The position numbers and the translations under genes are program-made. Under the pieces are notes generated by a model. The model was not told the origin of the DNA. It did not search any database and was given only the letters and a program-made list of their open reading frames with translations. From Beijerinckiaceae bacterium (GTDB taxonomy: Bacteria > Pseudomonadota > Alphaproteobacteria > Rhizobiales > Beijerinckiaceae), in contig CBDAPQ010000005.1 of assembly GCA_965198485.1 (NCBI GenBank), positions 3,712,129-3,776,128 of the forward strand: a DNA stretch of 64,000 nt, given 5' to 3'. Each line of letters begins with the position of its first letter. Position 1 is the first letter of the stretch. Shown piece after piece: positions 9,830 through 55,114 of the stretch.

Positions 9830-10696
9830 ATGGCTGCACCTAGGAAAAGGCCGGACTCCGAAGCCGCGCGGTCGGCTTCCGCAAGCCGCCGGGCGATGCT
9901 AGAGGACGGCGCCTTCCCGCGACCTTCAGGTGAGATGCCCCGATTTTCGGCCACCACCCATCTGCCGAGCCTCAACTTCTTGATGCTCTGCCTGCTCTTC
10001 ACCGGAATGGGGGCGGCGCTTTGGCACGGATGGGTCGCGGGCCAGGCGGCGGTGCTGGTCTTCGTCATCACCGGCTGGATCGTGAGCCTCTGCCTGCACG
10101 AGTTCGGCCACGCCCTCACCGCCTACAAGGCCGGCGACCACTCGATCCCGACGAGCGGCTACCTGACACTGGATCCGTTGAAATACGCCGACCCGTTCCT
10201 GTCGCTCGTTCTGCCCCTGGTCTACATCGTGATCGGCGGCTTCGGCCTGCCGGGCGGCGCGGTCTGGATCAACCACGCCGCCATCCGCAGCGCCTGGTGG
10301 GATTCCGCGGTTTCCGCCGCCGGACCGTTCGCCAACGTGCTGTTCCTCGCCATGCTGGGCGGGCTCTACCAGCTCGTGCCGCACGGCGAGGAGACCTCGG
10401 ACATCGAGGCGGCCCTGGCGGTGCTGGCCTTTTTCCAGGGCACCGCCATCGTCCTCAACCTTTTGCCGATCCCCGGGCTCGACGGGTTCGGCATCATCCG
10501 CCCGTTCCTGCCCGGCCATTACGCCGCGGCCGGCATGGCGATGGCGGCCGGCCTCGGCTTCGTGCTGATCTTCGTGGTGCTGTCGGTCCCCGTCATCGGC
10601 AACTTCATCTTCGAAACCGGCCTCGACGTCACGACGTTCGCCGGCTTCGATCCGCACGACGTCTTCTCCGGCTACAGGTACCTGCGCTTCTTCTGA
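9830..10696 (+). CDS. Site-2 protease family (M50) membrane metalloprotease
   Basis: HEFGHALTAY (HExxH) lies in a TM helix, with several further TM segments and LPIPGLDGF. The start is uncertain: 9830, 9896 or 9935. Confidence 0.75.
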   Translation: MAAPRKRPDSEAARSASASRRAMLEDGAFPRPSGEMPRFSATTHLPSLNFLMLCLLFTGMGAALWHGWVAGQAAVLVFVITGWIVSLCLHEFGHALTAYKAGDHSIPTSGYLTLDPLKYADPFLSLVLPLVYIVIGGFGLPGGAVWINHAAIRSAWWDSAVSAAGPFANVLFLAMLGGLYQLVPHGEETSDIEAALAVLAFFQGTAIVLNLLPIPGLDGFGIIRPFLPGHYAAAGMAMAAGLGFVLIFVVLSVPVIGNFIFETGLDVTTFAGFDPHDVFSGYRYLRFF

Positions 10697-10792
10697 GGTC
10701 TTGCTCTTTCGGGGGCGGGCCGAGGCCGCGTCCGCCGGTCACGCGGCCAACCCGTCCTTCCCTCCATCCCCCGCCCCTGCTACGCCGCCACC

Positions 10793-12595
10793 ATGGCCTC
10801 CGTACCGCTCGACAACATCCGCAACTTCTCCATCGTCGCGCACATCGACCACGGCAAGTCGACGCTCGCCGACCGGCTCATCCAGACCACCGGCACCGTC
10901 GCCCTGCGCGACATGAGCGAGCAGATGCTCGATTCCATGGACATCGAGCGCGAGCGCGGCATCACCATCAAGGCGCAAACGGTGCGGCTGGAGTACACGG
11001 CGCAGGACGGCAAGACCTACATCCTGAACCTGATGGACACGCCCGGCCACGTCGACTTCGGCTACGAGGTCAGCCGCTCGCTCGCCGCCTGCGAGGGCTC
11101 GCTGCTGGTGGTCGACGCCTCCCAGGGCGTGGAAGCCCAGACGCTGGCCAACGTCTACGCCGCCATCGAGGCCGGCCACGAGATCGTGCCGGTGCTGAAC
11201 AAGATCGACCTGCCCGCCGCCGAGCCCGAGCGGGTGAAGCAGCAGATCGAGGACGTCATCGGCATCGACGCCTCCGACGCCGTGTCGATCTCGGCCAAGA
11301 CCGGCATCGGCATCGACCTGGTGCTGGAGGCCATCGTCAAGCGCCTGCCGCCGCCCAAGGGCGACGCCGCCGCCCCGCTCAAGGCGCTGCTCGTCGACAG
11401 CTGGTACGACGCCTACCTCGGCGTCGTCGTGCTGGTGCGGGTGCTCGACGGCAGCCTGCGCAAGGGCCAGCGCGTGCTGATGATGGGCGCCGACGCGCGC
11501 TACGAGGTCGACCGCATCGGCGTCTTCACCCCCAAGATGAAGGACGCGCCCATTCTGGGCCCGGGCGAGATGGGCTTCATCACCGCGCAGATCAAGCAGG
11601 TGGCCGACACCCGCGTCGGCGACACCATCACCGATGCCGGCAGGCCCTGCGACGCCGCGCTGGCCGGCTTCAAGCCGGCACAACCGGTGGTGTTCTGCGG
11701 CCTGTTCCCGGTCGATGCCGCCGATTTCGAGGCCCTGCGCGCCGCCGTCGGCCGACTTCGGCTCAACGACGCCAGCTTCTCCTACGAGATGGAGAGCTCC
11801 GCCGCGCTCGGCTTCGGCTTCCGCTGCGGCTTCTTGGGCCTGCTGCACCTCGAGATCATCCAGGAGCGGCTGGAGCGCGAGTTCAACCTCGACCTCATCG
11901 CCACCGCCCCCAGCGTCGTCTACGAGATGAAGCTGCGCGACGGCACCCAGGTCAGCCTGCACAACCCCGCCGACATGCCCGACCCCACGCAGATCCTGGC
12001 GATCGAGGAGCCGTGGATCCGCGCCACCATCCTCACCCCCGACGAATACCTCGGCAACGTACTCAAGCTCTGCCAGGAGCGCCGCGGCGTGCAGGTGGAC
12101 CTCAACTACGTCGGCAGCCGCGCCATGGCGGTCTACGACCTGCCGCTGAACGAGGTGGTGTTCGACTTCTACGACCGCCTGAAATCGATCTCGAAGGGCT
12201 ACGCCTCGTTCGACTACGCCATCACCGACTACCGCGAGGGCGACCTCGTGCGCATGAACATCCTGGTCAACGCCGAGCCCGTCGACGCCCTCTCCATGCT
12301 GGTCCACCGCGACCGCGCCGAGGGCCGCGGCCGCGCCATGGTGGAGAAGCTGAAGGACCTCATCCCCCAGCACATGTTCGTCATCCCCGTGCAGGCGGCG
12401 ATCGGCGGCAAGATCATCGCTCGCGAGACCGTGCGCGCCATGCGCAAGGACGTCACCGCCAAGTGCTACGGCGGCGACGTCTCACGCAAGCGCAAGCTGT
12501 TGGAGAAGCAGAAGGCCGGCAAGAAGAAGATGCGGCAGTTCGGCAAGGTGGAGATCCCGCAGGAGGCGTTCATCGCGGCGCTGAAGATGGAGTGA
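10793..12595 (+). CDS. lepA: Elongation factor 4 (translational GTPase LepA)
   Basis: [29 protein letters not shown] and NKIDL G-motifs, plus the conserved LepA C-terminus ...[35 protein letters not shown]. Confidence 0.97.
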
Positions 12596-12748
12596 GGGGT
12601 TCGGCATGGCGGTCGGGACGGGTTTCGGCAGAGGCACCGGGCGCTCCTGGTGTCTTGCCGAAGCGTTCATTTAGGTATCTTAACCGGTTTCCAACGACGC
12701 GTCCACCTCCAGCCGCCCTCGGGAACGCGGCCCTGTCGCGTCGCGAGC

Positions 12749-12881
12749 CCTGACATGTGACCCTGCCAAAGTCAGGGTACCGCGACACAAACAGGGGCCG
12801 GTGTCAGCGTACCGCGACATGAAACCCGGCCATCGGCGCGAACCGCGACAAGGGTCGATTCCGAGTGGTCGTTCGGCGACA
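12749..12881 (+). repeat. Array of 4-5 direct repeats with 31-32 bp period (core CGCGACA)
   Basis: Cores are at 12781, 12813 and 12844 (GTACCGCGACA / GAACCGCGACA), with degenerate units at 12749 (CCTGACA) and 12875 (GGCGACA). One inverted core, TGTCGCG, is at 12734-12740. Confidence 0.7.
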
Positions 12882-12920
12882 TGACGAAAGTTTCATGCTT
12901 GGCGGGAGGCGATCGGCGGT

Positions 12921-12960
12921 CGTGGAGGCAGCGTTTATCGCAACGCTGAAGATGCCGAGG
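12921..12960 (+). repeat. Short decayed remnant of the lepA 3' end
   Basis: GTGGAGGCAGCGTTTATCGCAACGCTGAAGATGCCGAGG compared with lepA GTGGAG...GAGGCGTTCATCGCGGCGCTGAAGATGGAGTGAGG. Confidence 0.5.
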
Positions 12961-12980: not shown

Positions 12981-13272
12981 ATGATCCTCATCCGCCAGAC
13001 TGAAGCTTTCGCCGACTGGTTTGCCGGCTTACGCGACGAGCGCGCCGTCGCCCGCGTTTCGGCGCGGCTTCGCCGTATGGCCCTCGGCAATCCCGGCGAT
13101 GTCTTATCTGTCGGCCAGGGCGTCAGCGAAATGAGGATCGACTACGGGCCGGGAATACCGCATCTACTACAAGCAAATCGGCACCGAAATCGTGCTTCTG
13201 CTGTGCGGAGGTGACAAGAGCAGCCAGAAACGCGATATTGCTCGGGCGATCGTCCTGGCTTCGCTGGAATAA
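12981..13272 (+). pseudogene. Addiction-module killer protein (RelE/ParE superfamily, HigB-like), frameshifted
   Basis: The listed ORF stops at 13214. From 13156 the +1 frame reads [38 protein letters not shown], the expected family C-terminus. One extra A lies in GGAATAC at about 13154-13155. Confidence 0.8.
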
Positions 13273-13274
13273 CC

Positions 13275-13577
13275 ATGCCGCTCAAAACCATGCCATGGGA
13301 TGTCGCCGACCATCTCGGGAGCGACAGCGCCATCGCCGCTTATCTGGATGCCTGCCTGGAAGACGGTGACCCGAAGCTCGTGGGTGCGGCGCTCGGCGAT
13401 ATCGCGCGCGCCAAGGGCGTCACCGACCTCGCGGCGCGAACAGGGCTGCCGGTTGCCATCCTCGGACGCGCTTTGTCCGGCGAAGACATTCCCGATTTTG
13501 CGACCATCGTGAAGGTCATTGCCGCATTGGGTTTGCAGCTCGGTGCTCGATTGGCACCTGCGGCGAATGCGGCTTGA
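13275..13577 (+). CDS. Addiction-module antidote protein (HTH, HigA-like)
   Basis: 100 aa, starting 2 nt after the repaired toxin stop. DVADHLGSDSAIAAYLDACLEDGDP...IARAKGVTDLAARTGL is typical of the cognate antidote family. Confidence 0.85.
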   Translation: MPLKTMPWDVADHLGSDSAIAAYLDACLEDGDPKLVGAALGDIARAKGVTDLAARTGLPVAILGRALSGEDIPDFATIVKVIAALGLQLGARLAPAANAA

Positions 13578-13578
13578 G

Positions 13579-13806
13579 TTCATGGTCGTCACCGCCGTGC
13601 AGGCCGCTATCGGCGGCATTATCGCCCGCGAGACGGTGCGCGCCATGCGCAAGGACGTGACAGCAAGTATTGCGGCGTCGACGTACCCGTAAGCGCAAGC
13701 TGCTGGAGAAGCCGAAGACCGGCAAGAAGAAGATGCGGCAGTTCGGCAAGGTGGAGATCCCGCAGGAGGCGTTCATCGCGGCGTTGAAGATGGAGTGAGG
13801 GGTTCG
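13579..13806 (+). repeat. Displaced, decayed copy of the lepA 3' end (about 228 bp, includes stop codon)
   Basis: Collinear with lepA 12373-12603. By my manual alignment the last ~105 bp differ at only about four positions. The upstream part has indels and an in-frame TAA. Confidence 0.9.
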
Positions 13807-13977: not shown

Positions 13978-14056
13978 GCGCAAGGACATCACCGCCGAGT
14001 GCTATAGCGGCGACGTCTCCCGCAAACGCAAGCTCTTGGAGAAGTAGAAGGCCGGC
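13978..14056 (+). repeat. Third lepA 3' fragment (internal 79 bp)
   Basis: GCGCAAGGACATCACCGCCGAGTGCTATAGCGGCGACGTCTCCCGCAAACGCAAGCTCTTGGAGAAGTAGAAGGCCGGC aligns to lepA 12442-12520. Similarity ends abruptly at 14056. Confidence 0.8.
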
Positions 14057-14059
14057 TTC

Positions 14060-14584
14060 TTATTTTGCATAGAAAAGGTGTTGCGCAAGAAGAAAGAGGA
14101 CGGAAGCTATAATCGACGCAATAATACCACTGATAAAGCCAAAAAGGCGCTCCTTCCAAACTTGAGCTTGTGTCGGAAATCCGACTACGCGCCGAAACTC
14201 GGCGGTATCTACTTCTGCTACTTTTTTCAAAGTGTCGAGCTGAGTGTCGAGCTGCTGCTTCTGTTTTTCAGCATCAGCAATTCGCGCCAAAGCACGCTCA
14301 AGCTCGACTTTATTTGCGCTCGCCTGCTCTCGCAAATCGTCGACTGCGCGTATAGCATCCTGCAGGTTCTCTCTAGCCGCGTCGATTTTTCGAATGCGAT
14401 CATCAAGACTTATGTCGCTTGGCTCTGCGACGATATCGCGGAGGATCGCTGGCCGGCGGTATTCCGGAATGACGAGACGTAGAAGCTCTTCTATAATGTG
14501 AAAGTAGGCACGAAAAATATCGAAAAGGATACGGGCTACCGCCACAAACAGGCGGTACATATTTTTTCTAGCCTTGCTCGTCAT
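14060..14584 (-). CDS. Hypothetical coiled-coil protein with C-terminal transmembrane anchor
   Basis: 174-aa ORF in AT-rich DNA. Central heptad-like region (RENLQDAIRAVDDLREQASANKVELERALARIADAEKQKQQLDTQLDTLKK) and terminal TM LFGFISGIIASIIASVLFLLAQHLF. It lies 21 nt downstream of the split gene, on the same strand. Confidence 0.6.
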   Translation of the reverse strand: MTSKARKNMYRLFVAVARILFDIFRAYFHIIEELLRLVIPEYRRPAILRDIVAEPSDISLDDRIRKIDAARENLQDAIRAVDDLREQASANKVELERALARIADAEKQKQQLDTQLDTLKKVAEVDTAEFRRVVGFPTQAQVWKERLFGFISGIIASIIASVLFLLAQHLFYAK

Positions 14585-14605
14585 TGTCTAATCTCATATC
14601 AATGC

Positions 14606-14907
14606 TTAAAACGGGATGTCGTCATCGACTTGGCTAGAGGAAGATTGATTCAAATGCCTTATATGTTTATTGTTTATATCATTGCCTAATCCACGCGAAG
14701 GTGCAGGCAGAGCTTTCGGCGGCGGAGTTAAGCGCTTCTGCGCTGCGTCTTCTGTTTCTTTGTCTTGACCAATTAATTGCATGATGTGCGCGATGGCGCT
14801 TTGTCCGTCAGCAGCGATTGTTGTCACGTTTGCAATAGCAGCTATGGCAGCCAGTACAGCCATGGTCTTTGCAAAGCTTAGACGCTGGTCGGACACATCT
14901 CCTGCTA
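14606..14907 (-). pseudogene. 3' portion of the IS-interrupted gene; product ends ...SSSSQVDDDIPF
   Basis: In frame with the 5' portion once the IS is removed (see findings). It contains the hydrophobic segment AVLAAIAAIANVTTIAA, a Pro/Ser-rich linker and an SSB-like tip. Confidence 0.8.
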
Positions 14908-15757
14908 GGCTCAGGACTCATTCTTGTCACAGCCAGAAGATGACGATTGCTGCGATGACGATGGCTGACATGAAGGTGTGGCGCAACGATCGTAGCGGGT
15001 GGCGACGCGGCGCCAGTCCTTGAGGCGGCCGAACATGTTCTCGACCTTGTGGCGGACCCTGTAGATCGCGCGGTCGTAGGCGTGCTGGACCTTGCGGGTC
15101 TTGCGCGGTGGGATGCAGGGCCTGATGCCCTTGTCTTCGAGCGCGGCGCGGTAGCCGTCGCTGTCGTAACCGCGGTCAGCGACGAGGACGTCGGCCGCTG
15201 GCAGCGCGTCGAGCAGGAAGGCGGCGCCGGCGTGGTCGCTCATCTCACCTTCGGAGAGCAGCATGGCGACGGGGCGGCCCTGGCCATCGCAGACCGCGTG
15301 CAGCTTGGAGTTCAGGCCGCCCTTCGTGCGCCCGATACGGCGGGGTAAAGCCCCTTTTTGAAGAGGCTCGCTGCAGTGCGATGCGCCTTGAGATGGGTGG
15401 CATCGATCATCAGAAGATCGGGCTCCCCGGCCCAGCCCGCGAGGGCGGCGAAGATGCGGTCGAACACGCCGAGCCGGCTCCAACGGACGAAGCGATTGTA
15501 GAGCGTCTTGTGCGGACCATAGTCAGGTGGCGCATCGCGCCAGCGCATGCCGGTGCGGATCACGTGCACGATGCCGCTGAGAACACGTCGGTCGTCCACG
15601 CGGGCGATGCCGTGCGACAGCGGAAAGTAAGGTTCGATCCGCGCCATCTGCGCGTCCGAAAGCCAGAACGAATCATCCATGCAGCGCACCTCCCAACCGC
15701 ATGGAATCATCAGCTCGACCTGGCCGAAAGCCTGCCGACGTTAATAGGTCCTGAGCC
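14908..15757 (-). mobile_element. IS5-family insertion sequence (IS427/IS1031-like), about 850 bp
   Basis: Terminal inverted repeats GGCTCAGGAC(T/C)(C/T)ATT... at both ends (10/10 bp, then 16/21). TA is duplicated at 14906-07 and 15758-59 within a reconstructed CTAG target. Two overlapping transposase frames. Confidence 0.9.
14911..15680 (-). CDS. IS5-family DDE transposase (orfA 15312..15680, orfB 14911..15483; putative -1 frameshift)
   Basis: OrfA reads MDDSFWLSDAQMARIEPYFP...RWRDAPPDYGP..TLYNRF.RW and orfB reads ...LHAVCDGQGRP...DRGYDSD.....L...GI.PCIPPRK...YD...Y..RH.VENMFGRLKDWRR.ATRYDR. The frames overlap at the run CAAAAAGG (A-run 15355-15359). Confidence 0.85.
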
Positions 15758-16255
15758 TAGCTGGTCAAGCCTTTGAAAAATTCGCTCCTTCCGCTCGGCA
15801 TCTATATCGGAATTAATTACAAGCTCACGTATCCTCAAAATATAATGATCGATCTTGGTCCGCGTGCTGCCCGCAAGCAACACCGAATAGGGGTGCCGCT
15901 CGCCGCGCTGCCGAATACGGATTCGTGCGACTTCTCCTTGTACAGCCAAACTAAACCGGGAGAAAAAGCTATAAACGTCCTTGTCATCCGGATCATAATA
16001 AACGTTCGCAATACGGCACTCTTGAGCCACAGCTGCTACAGCAGCCATGTATTGATCACGAACGGCCTGATCGAACTCTGAGGTGGTATTCTCGTCGATC
16101 ATCCGAGTCATGTTGCGCCGGCAAATGTTTTCAAACTCAACAAAACAACGCTCATCATCCTCGGGAAGAGAATTATATTCGTCTTCAGAGATTAGCTCGT
16201 AGGCCATAATTAATTCGTCCGGTTGTCTGCATAAACCAGATTCGAGTGAGTTCAC
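15758..16255 (-). pseudogene. 5' portion of the IS-interrupted gene (acidic N-terminal region, unknown function)
   Basis: The last 16 codons of listed ORF 15710..16255 (GSGPINVGRLSARSS*) are read from IS sequence. The native frame continues at 14905. The likely start is ATG 16207 (MAYELISEDEY) or GTG 16255. Confidence 0.8.
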
Positions 16256-16295: not shown

Positions 16296-16523
16296 TCAGC
16301 AAGGGTCCTTCCGAAAATGATCCGGGTTGGCATGATCGTGGAGATGGCGGACGCGGGCGACGTGGACGGGGCGGTAGCCTTCGGCGCAGGCCTTGTCCTT
16401 GGCCTCGTGCTGCGTCTTGAACGAGCCGTGCTTTTCCTCGCCGCCGGTCACGATGACGTAGTGCGAGACCGTGGCCTCCTTGTCCGTGCTCTTCGGCCTG
16501 TGCTCGATGTAGGCGGCTGCCAT
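16296..16523 (-). CDS. Small hypothetical protein (75 aa)
   Basis: ATG 16523 is preceded by GGGAG at a suitable distance. Product: MAAAYIEHRPKSTDKEATVSHYVIVTGGEEKHGSFKTQHEAKDKA... Confidence 0.5.
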   Translation of the reverse strand: MAAAYIEHRPKSTDKEATVSHYVIVTGGEEKHGSFKTQHEAKDKACAEGYRPVHVARVRHLHDHANPDHFRKDPC

Positions 16524-16673
16524 GGCGTGCTCCCGTAGGTTGCGGACAAGCGTAGGGGCACTCGTGACGCCGGACAAGACGCCGGCAACCGGCGTGCACA
16601 GCCTTGAAGCCTACATCCGAATGCATCGGCGCGGTCCGCGCGGGTCTGTCCCTGGAAGGCACGGCTGGCAGGG

Positions 16674-16766
16674 GAACCCATCCGGATTTTCTTGTCGATG
16701 ACGGCGCCAGAGGCGCCGCCGCCTGCCGCGGTCGCAGATCATTGACAAGAAAATCCGGATGGGTTC
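16674..16766. repeat. Perfect 23-bp inverted repeat separated by 47 bp
   Basis: GAACCCATCCGGATTTTCTTGTC (16674-16696) and its exact reverse complement (16744-16766). Confidence 0.9.
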
Positions 16767-21247: not shown

Positions 21248-22033
21248 ATGCTGACCGGCCCAGAGATCGAGCGCTACGCCCGCCACATCGTGCTGCACGA
21301 CGTCGGCGGCCCCGGCCAGGCCAGGCTGAAGGCCGCCCGCGTGCTGGCGATCGGCGCCGGCGGCCTCGGCGCGCCGCTGTTGCAATACCTGGCGGCGGCG
21401 GGCGTCGGCACGCTCGGCGTGGTCGACGACGACACCGTGGCGCTGTCCAACCTGCAGCGCCAGGTGCTGCACGGCACGCCCGACGTCGGCCGGCCCAAGG
21501 TCGAGAGCGCCGCCGAGGCGATCCGACGGCTCAACCCCCACGTCACCGTCGTGCCCTTGGCCGAGCGGCTCGACGCTGGCAATGCCCGCGCGCTGGTGCG
21601 GGGCTGGGACGTCGTCGCCGACGGCTCCGACAATTTCGCCACGCGCTACGCCGTCTCCGACGCCTGCTTCCACGAGGGCGTGCCGCTGGTGAGCGCGGCG
21701 GTGGGCAGCTTCGACGCCTCGCTGACGACGCTGCGCCCGCACGAGCGCGACGCCGAGGGCCGACCGAATCCAACCTACCGCTGCCTGTTCCCGCAGGCGC
21801 CCGAGGCGGGAGCCGTTCCCAGCTGCGCCGAGGCCGGCGTGCTCGGCGCGCTGACGGGGATCGTCGGCGCGATGATGGCGCTGGAGGTGATCCGCGAGAT
21901 CGTCGGCTTCGGCGAGGGCCTCGTCGGCCGCCTCGTGCTCATCGACACGATGGGCATGCGCTTCGAGACGCTGCGCTACGGCTGGGACCCGGCCAATCCG
22001 CTGAGCGGGGGCGGGGCGGCGAGCCCGCGCTAG
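21248..22033 (+). CDS. moeB: ThiF/MoeB/HesA-family adenylyltransferase
   Basis: ERYARHIVL..VGGPGQARLKAARVLAIGAGGLGAPLLQYLAAAGVG.LGVVDDD.V.LSNLQRQ. The start could be ATG 21206, 21239 or 21248. Confidence 0.8.
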   Translation: MLTGPEIERYARHIVLHDVGGPGQARLKAARVLAIGAGGLGAPLLQYLAAAGVGTLGVVDDDTVALSNLQRQVLHGTPDVGRPKVESAAEAIRRLNPHVTVVPLAERLDAGNARALVRGWDVVADGSDNFATRYAVSDACFHEGVPLVSAAVGSFDASLTTLRPHERDAEGRPNPTYRCLFPQAPEAGAVPSCAEAGVLGALTGIVGAMMALEVIREIVGFGEGLVGRLVLIDTMGMRFETLRYGWDPANPLSGGGAASPR

Positions 22034-22270
22034 CGAGGTCTCACGTTCATCGATACCCGGATTATGGCCGAGCGAGCTGCAGTACACGGTCCTCTCGCGG
22101 CTAGAACACAGCCACTCTGAGCGACGTAGACGAGCTTCATAACTTCCATGGTCGTCTTGAACGGCAAGATACCGAAGCGGGATTGCGTGTCGTTCCTAAA
22201 ATATGCAAGCCGCCCGACAGACCCGACCCTTACGAAAGCACGTTGCTCGAAGCGAACGAGGGGGCAGACG

Positions 22271-22435
22271 GTGAGTAAGGACGCAAAAGCATCGGCGGCT
22301 CGGAAGCCTAAGCTCAAGGATAAGCGTACCTTTGCCAACTAATTTGAACGCTTCATCGCCAAGGCCCGTGAGCTTGGCCTTGATGAGCGGGAAGAGACGT
22401 CCGATACCGCGCTTACAAAGCGTGGTACGGCATAA
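22271..22435 (+). pseudogene. Small Lys-rich protein gene interrupted by an in-frame TAA
   Basis: GTG 22271, preceded by GAGGGGG, reads VSKDAKASAARKPKLKDKRTFAN*FERFIAKARELGLDEREETSDTALTKRGTA*. The stop at 22340-22342 is in frame with the continuation. Confidence 0.4.
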
Positions 22436-22449
22436 CGTTAAGGCACCAC

Positions 22450-22926
22450 CTAAGTCTGGTGAGCGTAAGCAACAACCCTGCAAAAGTAGCTTTTCTTATA
22501 GTCGGAGTTAACTCCAAATAATTCTTTCCTGCTTCGCTCGCATTCTGAACGTTTTTCGTACGTTTTATCGATTTTTTTGCCGTCTTCGCTTGTCTCGGCA
22601 GCGAAAAGTAATTTTGGTGACAAGTTATAAGACACATATATAGCGTATTGATACATATTAGGTCCGCAGCGATTTTTTAGAATTTGCCAAAGATCTACCC
22701 CAGCAAACTTAGATCCTTTCTCTATGTCAGCTCCGCTAAAAAGCGTCTCGACGCTTTCGCCCATCTTCAATTCAATATTACCAATTGATGTCCAGGTGGG
22801 GCCATCGCTGGTAAAAAGGAAATTGCCACAGCTTAAGTGCATGTAGTCAAACCAGTCATCATCAGAACGAGAGACATAGCTTGGTGGGAAGCAGGCGAGT
22901 AGCACCGATAAGCCGATCCGCAGCAT
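22450..22926 (-). CDS. Hypothetical lipoprotein (AT-rich islet)
   Basis: Lipobox VLLAC at residues 8-12. Markedly lower GC than the flanks. Confidence 0.55.
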   Translation of the reverse strand: MLRIGLSVLLACFPPSYVSRSDDDWFDYMHLSCGNFLFTSDGPTWTSIGNIELKMGESVETLFSGADIEKGSKFAGVDLWQILKNRCGPNMYQYAIYVSYNLSPKLLFAAETSEDGKKIDKTYEKRSECERSRKELFGVNSDYKKSYFCRVVAYAHQT

Positions 22927-22996
22927 GCCTCTCCTCCTGACGGGAGGGCTACGTACCTCAGATTGCCGTTGTGCGACAATGACATGGTCGCCGGAC

Positions 22997-54298: not shown

Positions 54299-55114
54299 AT
54301 GATCGACGTGATCTTTGCTTCGGCGCCTGTCGAGCCGGCGCCGATCGAACAATGCTACTTCTATCATTCCACCGACATTCCTGGGCACGGTCGTGTCGAC
54401 GGAGAATGGGATCTCGCCTCCGGGATCGAGGCCTATCTCGGCCATGTCGACTTCGCCGGGCGCACCGTGCTCGACGTCGGCGCCGCGACCGGTTTTCTGA
54501 CCTTCCACATGGAGCGCGCCGGGGCTCGCGTGATTTCCTACGACTTGTCGCCAGAGCAGGGCTGGGACATCGTGCCGCTGTCAAGCCTCGACGCCGCCGA
54601 GCACGCCCGTGTCCGCAAGCACCACATCGGCGCGATCAACGCCGGCTATTGGCGGTGCCACCAGGCTTTCGCATCATCGGCGCGAATGGCGCATGGCACC
54701 GTCTATGCGATGGACGAGGCGCTCGGCCCGGTGGACGTCAGCGTCTTCGGCAGCATCCTGCTGCACCTGCGCGACCCTTTCCTGGCCTTGCATAACGCCC
54801 TGCGGCTCACGACGCAGACCGTTGTTGTCGCCGACATCCTGCCCGGCGCGCACCCCCTGTCGCGATGGACCAGCCTGCTGCTTGGCCGCGCCCAGCAATT
54901 CAAGCCGCGCTTCGCCCGGGGGCTGCCCTGGGAAACCTGGTGGAACCTGCCGCCGCGGCTGGTGGTGGAATACCTCGGCGTGCTCGGTTTCGAGAAGACG
55001 GTGGTGACCTACCACTCGCAGCTTCTGAAAGGTCGCCGCATGCCGATGTACACGGTGGTCGGCACGCGCACGCGGCCGACGGTGCCGTTGGAGCGCGACC
55101 GCGGCGGCGCCTGA
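54299..55114 (+). CDS. Class I SAM-dependent methyltransferase
   Basis: GRTVLDVGAATGFLTFHMERAGARVISYDL (motif I and post-I). Confidence 0.7.
   Translation: MIDVIFASAPVEPAPIEQCYFYHSTDIPGHGRVDGEWDLASGIEAYLGHVDFAGRTVLDVGAATGFLTFHMERAGARVISYDLSPEQGWDIVPLSSLDAAEHARVRKHHIGAINAGYWRCHQAFASSARMAHGTVYAMDEALGPVDVSVFGSILLHLRDPFLALHNALRLTTQTVVVADILPGAHPLSRWTSLLLGRAQQFKPRFARGLPWETWWNLPPRLVVEYLGVLGFEKTVVTYHSQLLKGRRMPMYTVVGTRTRPTVPLERDRGGA

Follow-up and report, generated by a model that had tools for sequence, protein, structure and literature searches.

How does a protein that lacks the fold of SSB (single-stranded DNA-binding protein) come to end in the SSB tail, and what might such a tail do for the mobile element that carries it? 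This question is raised by a stretch of 64,000 nucleotides (nt) from the genome of a Beijerinckiaceae bacterium (contig CBDAPQ010000005.1 of assembly GCA_965198485.1, positions 3,712,129 to 3,776,128), hereafter the window, in which an insertion sequence (IS) interrupts a gene whose product ends in DDDIPF. A first-pass annotation of the window had proposed that this gene and a neighbour encoding a membrane-anchored coiled coil form a mobile-element module that plugs into, or mimics, the SSB interaction hub. Our analysis, which was computational throughout, indicates that the interrupted gene belongs to a large, natural and uncharacterised family of SSB-tailed proteins with an acidic, all-helical body of ~210 amino acids (aa).

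The restored gene and its protein

Excision of the IS restores a single gene. Deletion of 14908-15759 (852 base pairs (bp), comprising the 850-bp IS and one TA) joined open reading frame (ORF) 15710..16255 in frame to ORF 14606..14896, producing the junction ...RLDQ-LAGD-VSDQRLSF... and the C-terminus QVDDDIPF followed by a stop codon. Moving the deleted segment by 1-2 bp gave an identical product, because the TA within the target site CTAG was duplicated by the IS insertion (the duplicates lie at 14906-7 and 15758-9); read on the minus strand, the sequence across the insertion is ...CTTGACCAGC-TA-[GGCTCAGGAC ... GTCCTGAGCC]-TA-GCAGGAGATGTG... The two halves had been taken for one gene encoding a protein of ~265 aa. 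The single gene is borne out by the in-frame join and by plentiful uninterrupted homologues in which the halves are contiguous, but the length and the start are not. Because all homologues begin M-x-Y-E-L-I-S (family consensus MxYELISxEEY), the true start is the ATG at 16207 (MAYELISEDEY...), which gives a protein of 249 aa, and the GTG at 16255 adds 16 spurious residues. The C-terminus of the upstream ORF as it now reads, GSGPINVGRLSARSS, is IS DNA, as the first-pass annotation had recognised. What the window holds is one IS-disrupted 249-aa gene, dead here, and not two ORFs. The parts of the gene and of the element within it are:

15758..16207, minus strand: SSB-tailed gene, 5' part, codons 1-149 plus base 1 of codon 150, including the upstream TA copy at 15758-15759
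14606..14907, minus strand: SSB-tailed gene, 3' part, the remainder of codon 150 to codon 249, and the stop
14908..15757, minus strand: IS5-family element, 850 bp, single copy in the window
15312-15710, minus strand: IS orfA (DUF4096; PF13340, E 9.8e-24)
14911-15483, minus strand: IS orfB (DDE_Tnp_1; PF01609, E 8.8e-18)

The element is assigned to the IS5 family by its DDE_Tnp_1 transposase with a DUF4096 N-terminal part, its terminal inverted repeats (a perfect 10-bp GGCTCAGGAC) and its short target duplication, and the nearest related copies, which lie on plasmids, carry the annotation 'IS5 family transposase'. Its orfA and orfB overlap around an AAAAAG run, and by ISfinder criteria it may belong to the IS427 subgroup.

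The restored protein contains the acidic N-terminus, hydrophobic segment and disordered tail that had been described from the sequence. Its N-terminus has a net charge of -9 over residues 1-45 and its isoelectric point is 5.05, and the acidity of the body argues against DNA binding by it. In an AlphaFold2 (AF2) model the protein is all-alpha (mean predicted local distance difference test score (pLDDT) 88), with eight helices within residues 8-209, only two strands of three residues each, and a disordered tail. From body to tail, its C-terminal part is built as follows:

14816..14875, minus strand: hydrophobic helix FAKTMAVLAAIAAIANVTTI, residues 161-180, with a Kyte-Doolittle 19-residue mean (KD19) of 1.92, helical in the AF2 model at pLDDT 84-96
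14699..14734, minus strand: linear motif RL(A/T)PPPKALPAP (residues 208-219), conserved in alignment A1 and closing the folded body
14633..14698, minus strand: disordered linker, residues 220-241, pLDDT ~50, varying in length and sequence across the family
14609..14632, minus strand: SSB-type tail QVDDDIPF, residues 242-249, of which DDDIPF is residues 244-249; it matches the SSB C-terminal (SSB-Ct) sequence DDDIPF and the last eight residues (C8) of alphaproteobacterial SSB, DLDDEIPF

The AF2 model contains no oligonucleotide/oligosaccharide-binding (OB) fold, and Foldseek matched it to nothing in PDB or BFVD below E=0.1. Searches of Pfam, NCBIfam and PHROGs with the protein returned nothing significant, including no SSB-family match, and a profile search of PDB sequences with the family gave nothing below E=1. 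The protein has the linker and acidic tip of an SSB without the OB fold, and it is not an SSB; on this point the family searches, the all-alpha model and Foldseek agree with one another and with the first-pass annotation.

The family and its tail

The restored protein matched 111 proteins, most of them ~246 aa long and 45-70% identical to it at 100% query coverage, all of which are labelled 'hypothetical' and carry no Pfam domain. They come from Methylobacterium, Lichenihabitans, Acidiphilium and metagenome-assembled genomes of Rhodospirillales. By profile, the family matched 1018 clusters at E<=1e-3 and 663 at E<=1e-10 in a search of 1.84 billion cluster representatives; look-ups of the members' clusters added no names or taxonomy, and none was annotated or characterised. 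Members share the N-terminal motif MxYELISxEEY..LP..D..CF, and the window protein fits the family end-to-end. The charge of the body is equally regular: among 208 members the mean net charge is -7.6 and 99% are negative, with about -10 over residues 1-85 and about +5 over residues 86-135.

Towards the C-terminus, the body ends and the linker begins at a conserved motif, RLAPPPKALPAP, which in the window protein takes the form RLTPPPKALPAP, with QVDDDIPF farther on. Within it R208, P212, L216 and P217 are invariant, and L209, P211, K214, A215 and P219 are conserved at >=90% (alignment A1). This motif is kept in the wide family, a minority subgroup of which lacks the tail and terminates just beyond it. 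The linker that follows is Pro-rich, 20-35 residues long and non-conserved. The hydrophobic helix stands at a fixed position with KD19 > 1.6 in 75% of the 208 members (range 1.6-2.4 in most), is rich in Ala, Gly, Ser and Thr, is preceded by R and K and followed by D/E, and is missing from a distant plasmid member. Such a helix could anchor the protein in a membrane, or could lie buried or in the core of an oligomer.

We assessed conservation of the tail in the 199 family members that are at least 190 aa long and end in PF, counting positions from the C-terminus:

Position -1: F, 100%
Position -2: P, 100%
Position -3: I, V or L, at 81, 12 and 5%
Position -4: D or E, 98%
Position -5: D, 88%
Position -6: D, 91%
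Position -7: L, 54%
Position -8: D or E, at 47 and 22%
Positions -9 and -10: variable

Across loci the codons of the tail vary synonymously (four for Pro, three for Ile, two for Phe and six for Leu) while the residues stay fixed, and the tail is still present at 33% overall identity. These patterns point to strong purifying selection on the last eight residues. A chance occurrence of DDDIPF is ruled out by the family-wide conservation together with the synonymous codon turnover. The first-pass annotation had said that its idea would fail if no uninterrupted homologues existed or if the terminal motif were not conserved among them; uninterrupted homologues exist, and the motif is conserved, with P and F at 100% and positions -3 to -6 at 81-98%.

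The conserved residues are those of SSB. DDDIPF is the classical SSB-Ct hexapeptide (PMC5872125), and the commonest C8 endings in the family are DLDDEIPF, DLDDDIPF and ELDDEIPF. Neither the window nor the fetched loci contained a canonical ssb gene for direct comparison of tails, and we used published alphaproteobacterial SSB endings instead: in a 2026 survey, LDDEIPF formed the last seven residues (C7) of SSB in 5795 of 18,841 alphaproteobacterial assemblies and DLDDEIPF the C8 in 4352 (PMC13490951). At the level of sequence, the family tail in its commonest forms matches the exact SSB tail of alphaproteobacteria. The SSB-Ct pockets of host enzymes, like those of phage RecT/Red-beta, recognise the final 7-9 SSB residues.

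A second, unrelated family carries the same ending. On plasmid pMSC49d of Methylosinus sp. C49, a member of the SSB-tailed family is adjoined by a divergent gene (locus L038, 10007-10768, minus strand) encoding the 253-aa XRE-type helix-turn-helix (HTH) protein WP_161915607.1, which ends in GIDDDIPF. This protein has 30 homologues at 31-99% identity, and nearly all of the full-length ones end in (D/E)(D/E)(D/E)(I/V)PF. In both families this ending follows a short variable linker and is borne by alphaproteobacterial mobile-element proteins, whereas the bodies are unrelated: a model of the XRE protein shows an N-terminal Cro/C1-type HTH and an alpha/beta domain, with no transmembrane (TM) segment, and the C-terminal alpha/beta domain had no PDB match. 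The SSB tail thus appears, from these sequences, to be modular and to be used by unrelated cytoplasmic mobile-element proteins. That the tail acts in the cytoplasm is argued by its retention both in the XRE family, which has no TM segment, and in a distant SSB-tailed member that lacks the hydrophobic helix.

Genomic settings

In each of the 29 loci compared, the GC content of the family gene fell below that of its flanks, the mean difference being 11 points. Its one phage setting is an IMG/VR contig, L033 (UViG_3300048832_000054), where the gene (10001-10741; 49% GC vs 64% for the contig) stands in a lambda-like head operon whose order is terminase GpA, portal, family gene, S78 prohead protease, HDPD decoration protein, capsid E. 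A head operon is an unusual site for accessory cargo. No family match was found among the 50,697 phage genomes of INPHARED, and a search of a plasmid collection returned only two distant members. Plasmid settings comprise Rep3/ParA and relaxase plasmids, and on pMSC49d the member lies among an HTH_36/DnaD_N/Phage_rep_O-like gene, a resolvase, a toxin-antitoxin pair and ParA; this distant member is 226 aa long, ends in SDDIPF and is without the hydrophobic helix. In islands with a tyrosine integrase, the gene is found near genes for Shedu SduA (E 3.9e-162), AbiD/PD-T4-5-like, HTH_36/DnaD_N and TIR-HEAT proteins, and some loci add restriction-modification and toxin-antitoxin genes. Some copies stand alone in chromosomes.

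The recurrent neighbour is a small serine resolvase. In three or four distinct lineages its gene lies directly upstream, with a stop codon that overlaps the start codon of the family gene, and resolvases occur within 3 kb of the gene in several further loci. No obligatory neighbour was present among the loci compared. The SSB-tailed gene is a solitary AT-rich mobile-element cargo without a fixed partner, and its phage head module, plasmid and integrase-island settings and low GC content uphold the mobile-element origin that had been proposed. The first-pass annotation had also read the IS insertion as consistent with a fitness cost; several other copies are frameshifted or truncated, which is a hint in that direction. 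Alongside these observations, in four loci the SSB-tailed gene is immediately preceded by a gene for an unannotated 210-aa protein (MTTTREGNAIVKKQLAQRELLWPG...; L040, 5372-6004), which in two others lies ~1 kb downstream (the loci sharing it are L040, L018, L019, L021 and L034/L035); the protein had no Pfam or PADLOC match.

The gene next to the SSB-tailed gene in the window had been considered its partner in a two-gene cassette:

14060..14584, minus strand: gene for a 174-aa coiled-coil protein with a C-terminal TM helix (Kyte-Doolittle value 2.47), 21 nt downstream of the SSB-tailed gene on the same strand

The arrangement is as had been described, and both genes are AT-rich (~48% GC, vs 67.6% for the window). 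The coiled-coil protein has only six homologues among 5.8 billion proteins. By tblastn it had no match in the first 13 loci with the SSB-tailed gene; a repeat at E<=1e-3 over 16 loci matched only its own three homologue loci; and the reverse search, with the SSB-tailed protein against the three loci of the coiled-coil homologues, gave no significant match. With the neighbourhood failing in both reciprocal searches of the fetched loci, we rejected the two-gene cassette, and the proposed sensor-effector pair with a membrane effector falls with it, having no comparative support. The coiled-coil gene appears from these comparisons to be independent cargo that lies beside the SSB-tailed gene here by happenstance. 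The matches of its product in Pfam, PADLOC, PHROG and NCBIfam were dismissed as generic coiled-coil noise.

As had been noted, the two genes lie in an island near lepA (10793-12595). Downstream of the lepA 3' end (12373-12603) lie three degenerate repeats of it, one of 231 nt (89%), one of 79 nt (90%) and a scrap of 24 nt at 12931-12954, which suggests that these copies are scars of serial integrations at lepA. The features between lepA and the coiled-coil gene are:

12981-13248, plus strand: RelE/ParE-type toxin, frameshifted near 13150
13275-13577, plus strand: HI1420-type antidote, paired with the RelE/ParE-type toxin
13581-13806 and 13978-14056, plus strand: degenerate copies of the lepA 3' end, the second abutting the AT-rich block

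The toxin-antidote pair is 38-50% homologous to the pair beside the family member on pMSC49d, and the relative arrangement is identical. No remnants of resolvase, HTH_36, Abi-like, Shedu or integrase genes were found in the window. The SSB-tailed gene sits in a decayed island at the lepA 3' end.

Several further sequences were recorded in and around the island. Between lepA and the toxin pseudogene, at 12771-12884, are four iteron-like copies of a 15-17-nt unit (GTCAG(G/C)GTACCGCGACA and variants) at 31-32-nt spacing, which could be of operator or origin type. An inverted repeat of 28 nt (96% complementary, 37-nt spacer) occupies 16674-16766, ~100 nt upstream of the start (16577) of a 93-aa ORF, 16296..16577, itself upstream of the SSB-tailed gene. 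Scans for promoters and terminators near the SSB-tailed gene did no better in the window or in the phage contig than on shuffled controls. Farther along, a low-GC patch at 22030-22930 (51% vs ~70%) carries a 158-aa ORF (22450..22926, minus strand) and may be another small insertion; its flanking genes we take, from their translations, to encode a ThiF/MoeB-like protein and a HAD-like hydrolase. Finally, ARAGORN called a tRNA-Ile(GAT) at 54619-54711 that, at 93 nt, is unusually long for a bacterial tRNA; it may be a miscall, or else an rRNA-operon spacer tRNA that has taken an insertion.

Proposed function, rivals and known systems

Some 17 or more genome-maintenance enzymes dock on the SSB tail, a pursued antibiotic target and a determinant of phage recombinase host fit. 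We propose that the free ...D-D-(D/E)-I-P-F carboxy-terminus of the family would enter the pocket on SSB-partner proteins that is normally occupied by the SSB tail, with PriA, RecQ, RecJ, RecO, RecG, DNA polymerase III's chi subunit, topoisomerase III (Topo III) and phage RecT/Red-beta-type annealases as candidate partners. Given the sequence match, docking of the tail into such pockets is probable. The acidic body would supply a second contact, and the protein would thereby imitate SSB-coated single-stranded DNA (ssDNA) and keep the partner from the real SSB-ssDNA, serving as a decoy or inhibitor that benefits the carrier phage, plasmid or island. This fuller statement, in which the outcome is sequestration or inhibition and not recruitment or sensing, we put forward tentatively, as one that may well prove wrong. 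Of the module that had first been envisaged, the idea of a mobile-element mimic of the SSB hub is retained here, and its two-gene sensor-effector form is not, as the coiled-coil gene is no partner.

A number of considerations weigh against a decoy. SSB peptides bind their partners weakly (in the micromolar range), with one tail per chain, and because a single tail binds weakly a decoy would need high expression, oligomerisation or a strong second contact. The predicted template modelling score of the AF2 model is just 0.62, which leaves the relative arrangement of the helices uncertain. The hydrophobic helix, with positive charges on its N-terminal side, could be a TM segment with the C-terminus outside, which would place the tail in the periplasm. 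The frequent resolvase coupling and the position in a plasmid maintenance region fit recruitment as well or better, and the weak matches to the PADLOC profile PDC-M14B, like the defence-gene neighbours, fit a role in defence.

Each of these last points opens onto a different account of the tail. If the body were to bind the element's resolvase-res complex, its Rep-origin complex or the membrane, the tail would act as an adaptor, bringing host SSB-partner enzymes to the element and promoting its replication, resolution or maintenance; PriA, chi or primase might be recruited for replisome assembly, for example, or Topo III/RecQ for decatenation of resolvase products. The stop-start overlap with a resolvase gene directly upstream in three or four lineages, and the presence of resolvases within 3 kb in more, speak for this account, as do the pMSC49d member's place among an HTH_36/DnaD_N/Phage_rep_O-like gene, a resolvase, toxin-antitoxin genes and ParA, the presence of the family on Rep3/ParA and relaxase plasmids, and the neighbouring XRE protein, a sequence-specific DNA binder with the same tail as would be expected of a recruiter. 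We nevertheless consider an adaptor rather unlikely, for the acidic body showed no DNA-binding or known protein-binding domain, many copies have neither a resolvase nor a rep gene nearby, being solitary in chromosomes or set in a phage head module, and there is no obligatory neighbour. The periplasmic account holds that the helix spans the membrane with the N-terminus in and the C-terminus out, that the IPF end serves as a ligand for PDZ domains or proteases in the manner of outer-membrane-protein C-termini, and that the likeness to SSB is coincidental. The KD19 of 1.6-2.4 at a fixed position in most members is in keeping with this, as is the order of charges (R and K before the helix, D/E after it), which follows the positive-inside rule, and a Pro-rich spacer after a TM helix recalls TonB/TolA-type periplasmic spanners. 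The match to SSB, however, spans eight residues, including L at -7 and D at -8 as in alphaproteobacterial SSB; the same tail is found on the cytoplasmic XRE family and on a member without the hydrophobic helix; and in its high content of Ala, Gly, Ser and Thr the helix resembles buried ones. A periplasmic tail strikes us as very improbable.

The tail might instead be bait. It would lure phage proteins that need the host SSB tail (RecT/Red-beta/Erf annealases, helicases, nucleases), an account we find doubtful, and it is just as doubtful that their capture would free the hydrophobic helix to cause membrane damage or another form of abort, making the gene a single-gene abortive infection system on prophages and plasmids. 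The SSB C7 is indeed recognised by phage annealases, and for several defence systems the trigger is a phage recombinase or SSB; weak matches to PDC-M14B were given by 14 of 36 members (best E 3.5e-5); neighbours include Shedu SduA, AbiD/PD-T4-5-like, TIR-HEAT, restriction-modification and toxin-antitoxin genes; the low-GC gene inside a phage head operon has a moron-like position; the hydrophobic helix is conserved in most members; and copies are often inactivated. On the other hand, the PADLOC match is weak and covers only 183-259 of the profile's 267 positions, with no PDC-M14A-like partner among the scanned neighbours, no effector domain is present, the distant member does without the hydrophobic helix, and this account does not readily explain the XRE family, which shares the tail. 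The family also had no match in 50,697 phage genomes. A broader version would embrace both families: the tail would be a portable access key, acquired independently by unrelated mobile-element proteins and used as sensor bait for SSB-docking phage proteins of the RecT/Red-beta type, with capture leading to abortive infection through the hydrophobic helix or, in the XRE family, to derepression of element genes, in a form of guard or decoy immunity. This version, too, seems to us improbable.

If borne out, the carriage of the host tail by two unrelated non-SSB families would mean that phages and plasmids exploit the SSB hub by short-motif mimicry. There would then be natural ligands of high affinity, or inhibitors, for SSB partners, and a new class of candidate host-takeover, anti-defence or defence factor. 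It would also supply a search rule, namely non-OB proteins that end in the host's SSB C7. Locally, the annotation is corrected to one IS-disrupted 249-aa gene in a decayed island at the lepA 3' end.

Among catalogued systems, PDC-M14B shares with the family a weak hidden Markov model match over the C-terminal third of the folded body (14 of 36 members, best E 3.5e-5); the window protein matches at E 0.0026, with residues 116-195 on positions 183-259 of the 267-position profile, which is weak and partial. The match falls well short of confident homology, and PDC-M14 is itself an uncharacterised candidate, for which a literature search found no paper. PDC-M14A had no match among the 10 recurrent neighbour proteins scanned or in the window neighbour. 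Ocr, ArdA and T7 gp5.9 are small, acidic, solitary mobile-element inhibitors without an enzymatic domain that are thought to mimic a nucleic-acid-bound state. The SSB-tailed family resembles them by analogy only, as small acidic solitary cargo; there is no homology, they have no SSB tail, and mimicry by the family is suggested by its charge.

The closest likeness is to bacterial SSB itself, with which the family shares a disordered, Pro-rich linker of variable length and a free D-D-(D/E)-I-P-F end, its DLDDEIPF and DLDDDIPF matching the alphaproteobacterial C8. In contrast to SSB, the body is acidic and all-helical and not an OB-fold tetramer, no ssDNA-binding domain was detected in it, and the gene is sporadic AT-rich mobile cargo and not an essential housekeeping gene. 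To our knowledge, the natural carriers of the SSB tail known so far are all SSBs. Plasmid and phage SSB homologues, such as the F-plasmid Ssb of plasmid leading regions, are true OB-fold ssDNA binders; like the family, they are mobile-element proteins that present an SSB-type tail to host partners, but the family has no sequence or fold similarity to them. Measured against the part of the literature that we compared, we rate the family as lying outside all described kinds of system. In that part, a search for a natural non-SSB protein with an SSB-Ct found none, the nearest being engineered: peptide and small-molecule mimetics of the SSB-Ct, and a PriB-SSBc chimera (PMC10143822, PMC5872125, PMC8509808). 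The principle is the same, an SSB tail in isolation or on a non-SSB scaffold that competes for or engages the pockets of SSB partners; those ligands are man-made, whereas the SSB-tailed family, whose binding is predicted only, would be a natural and selected counterpart.

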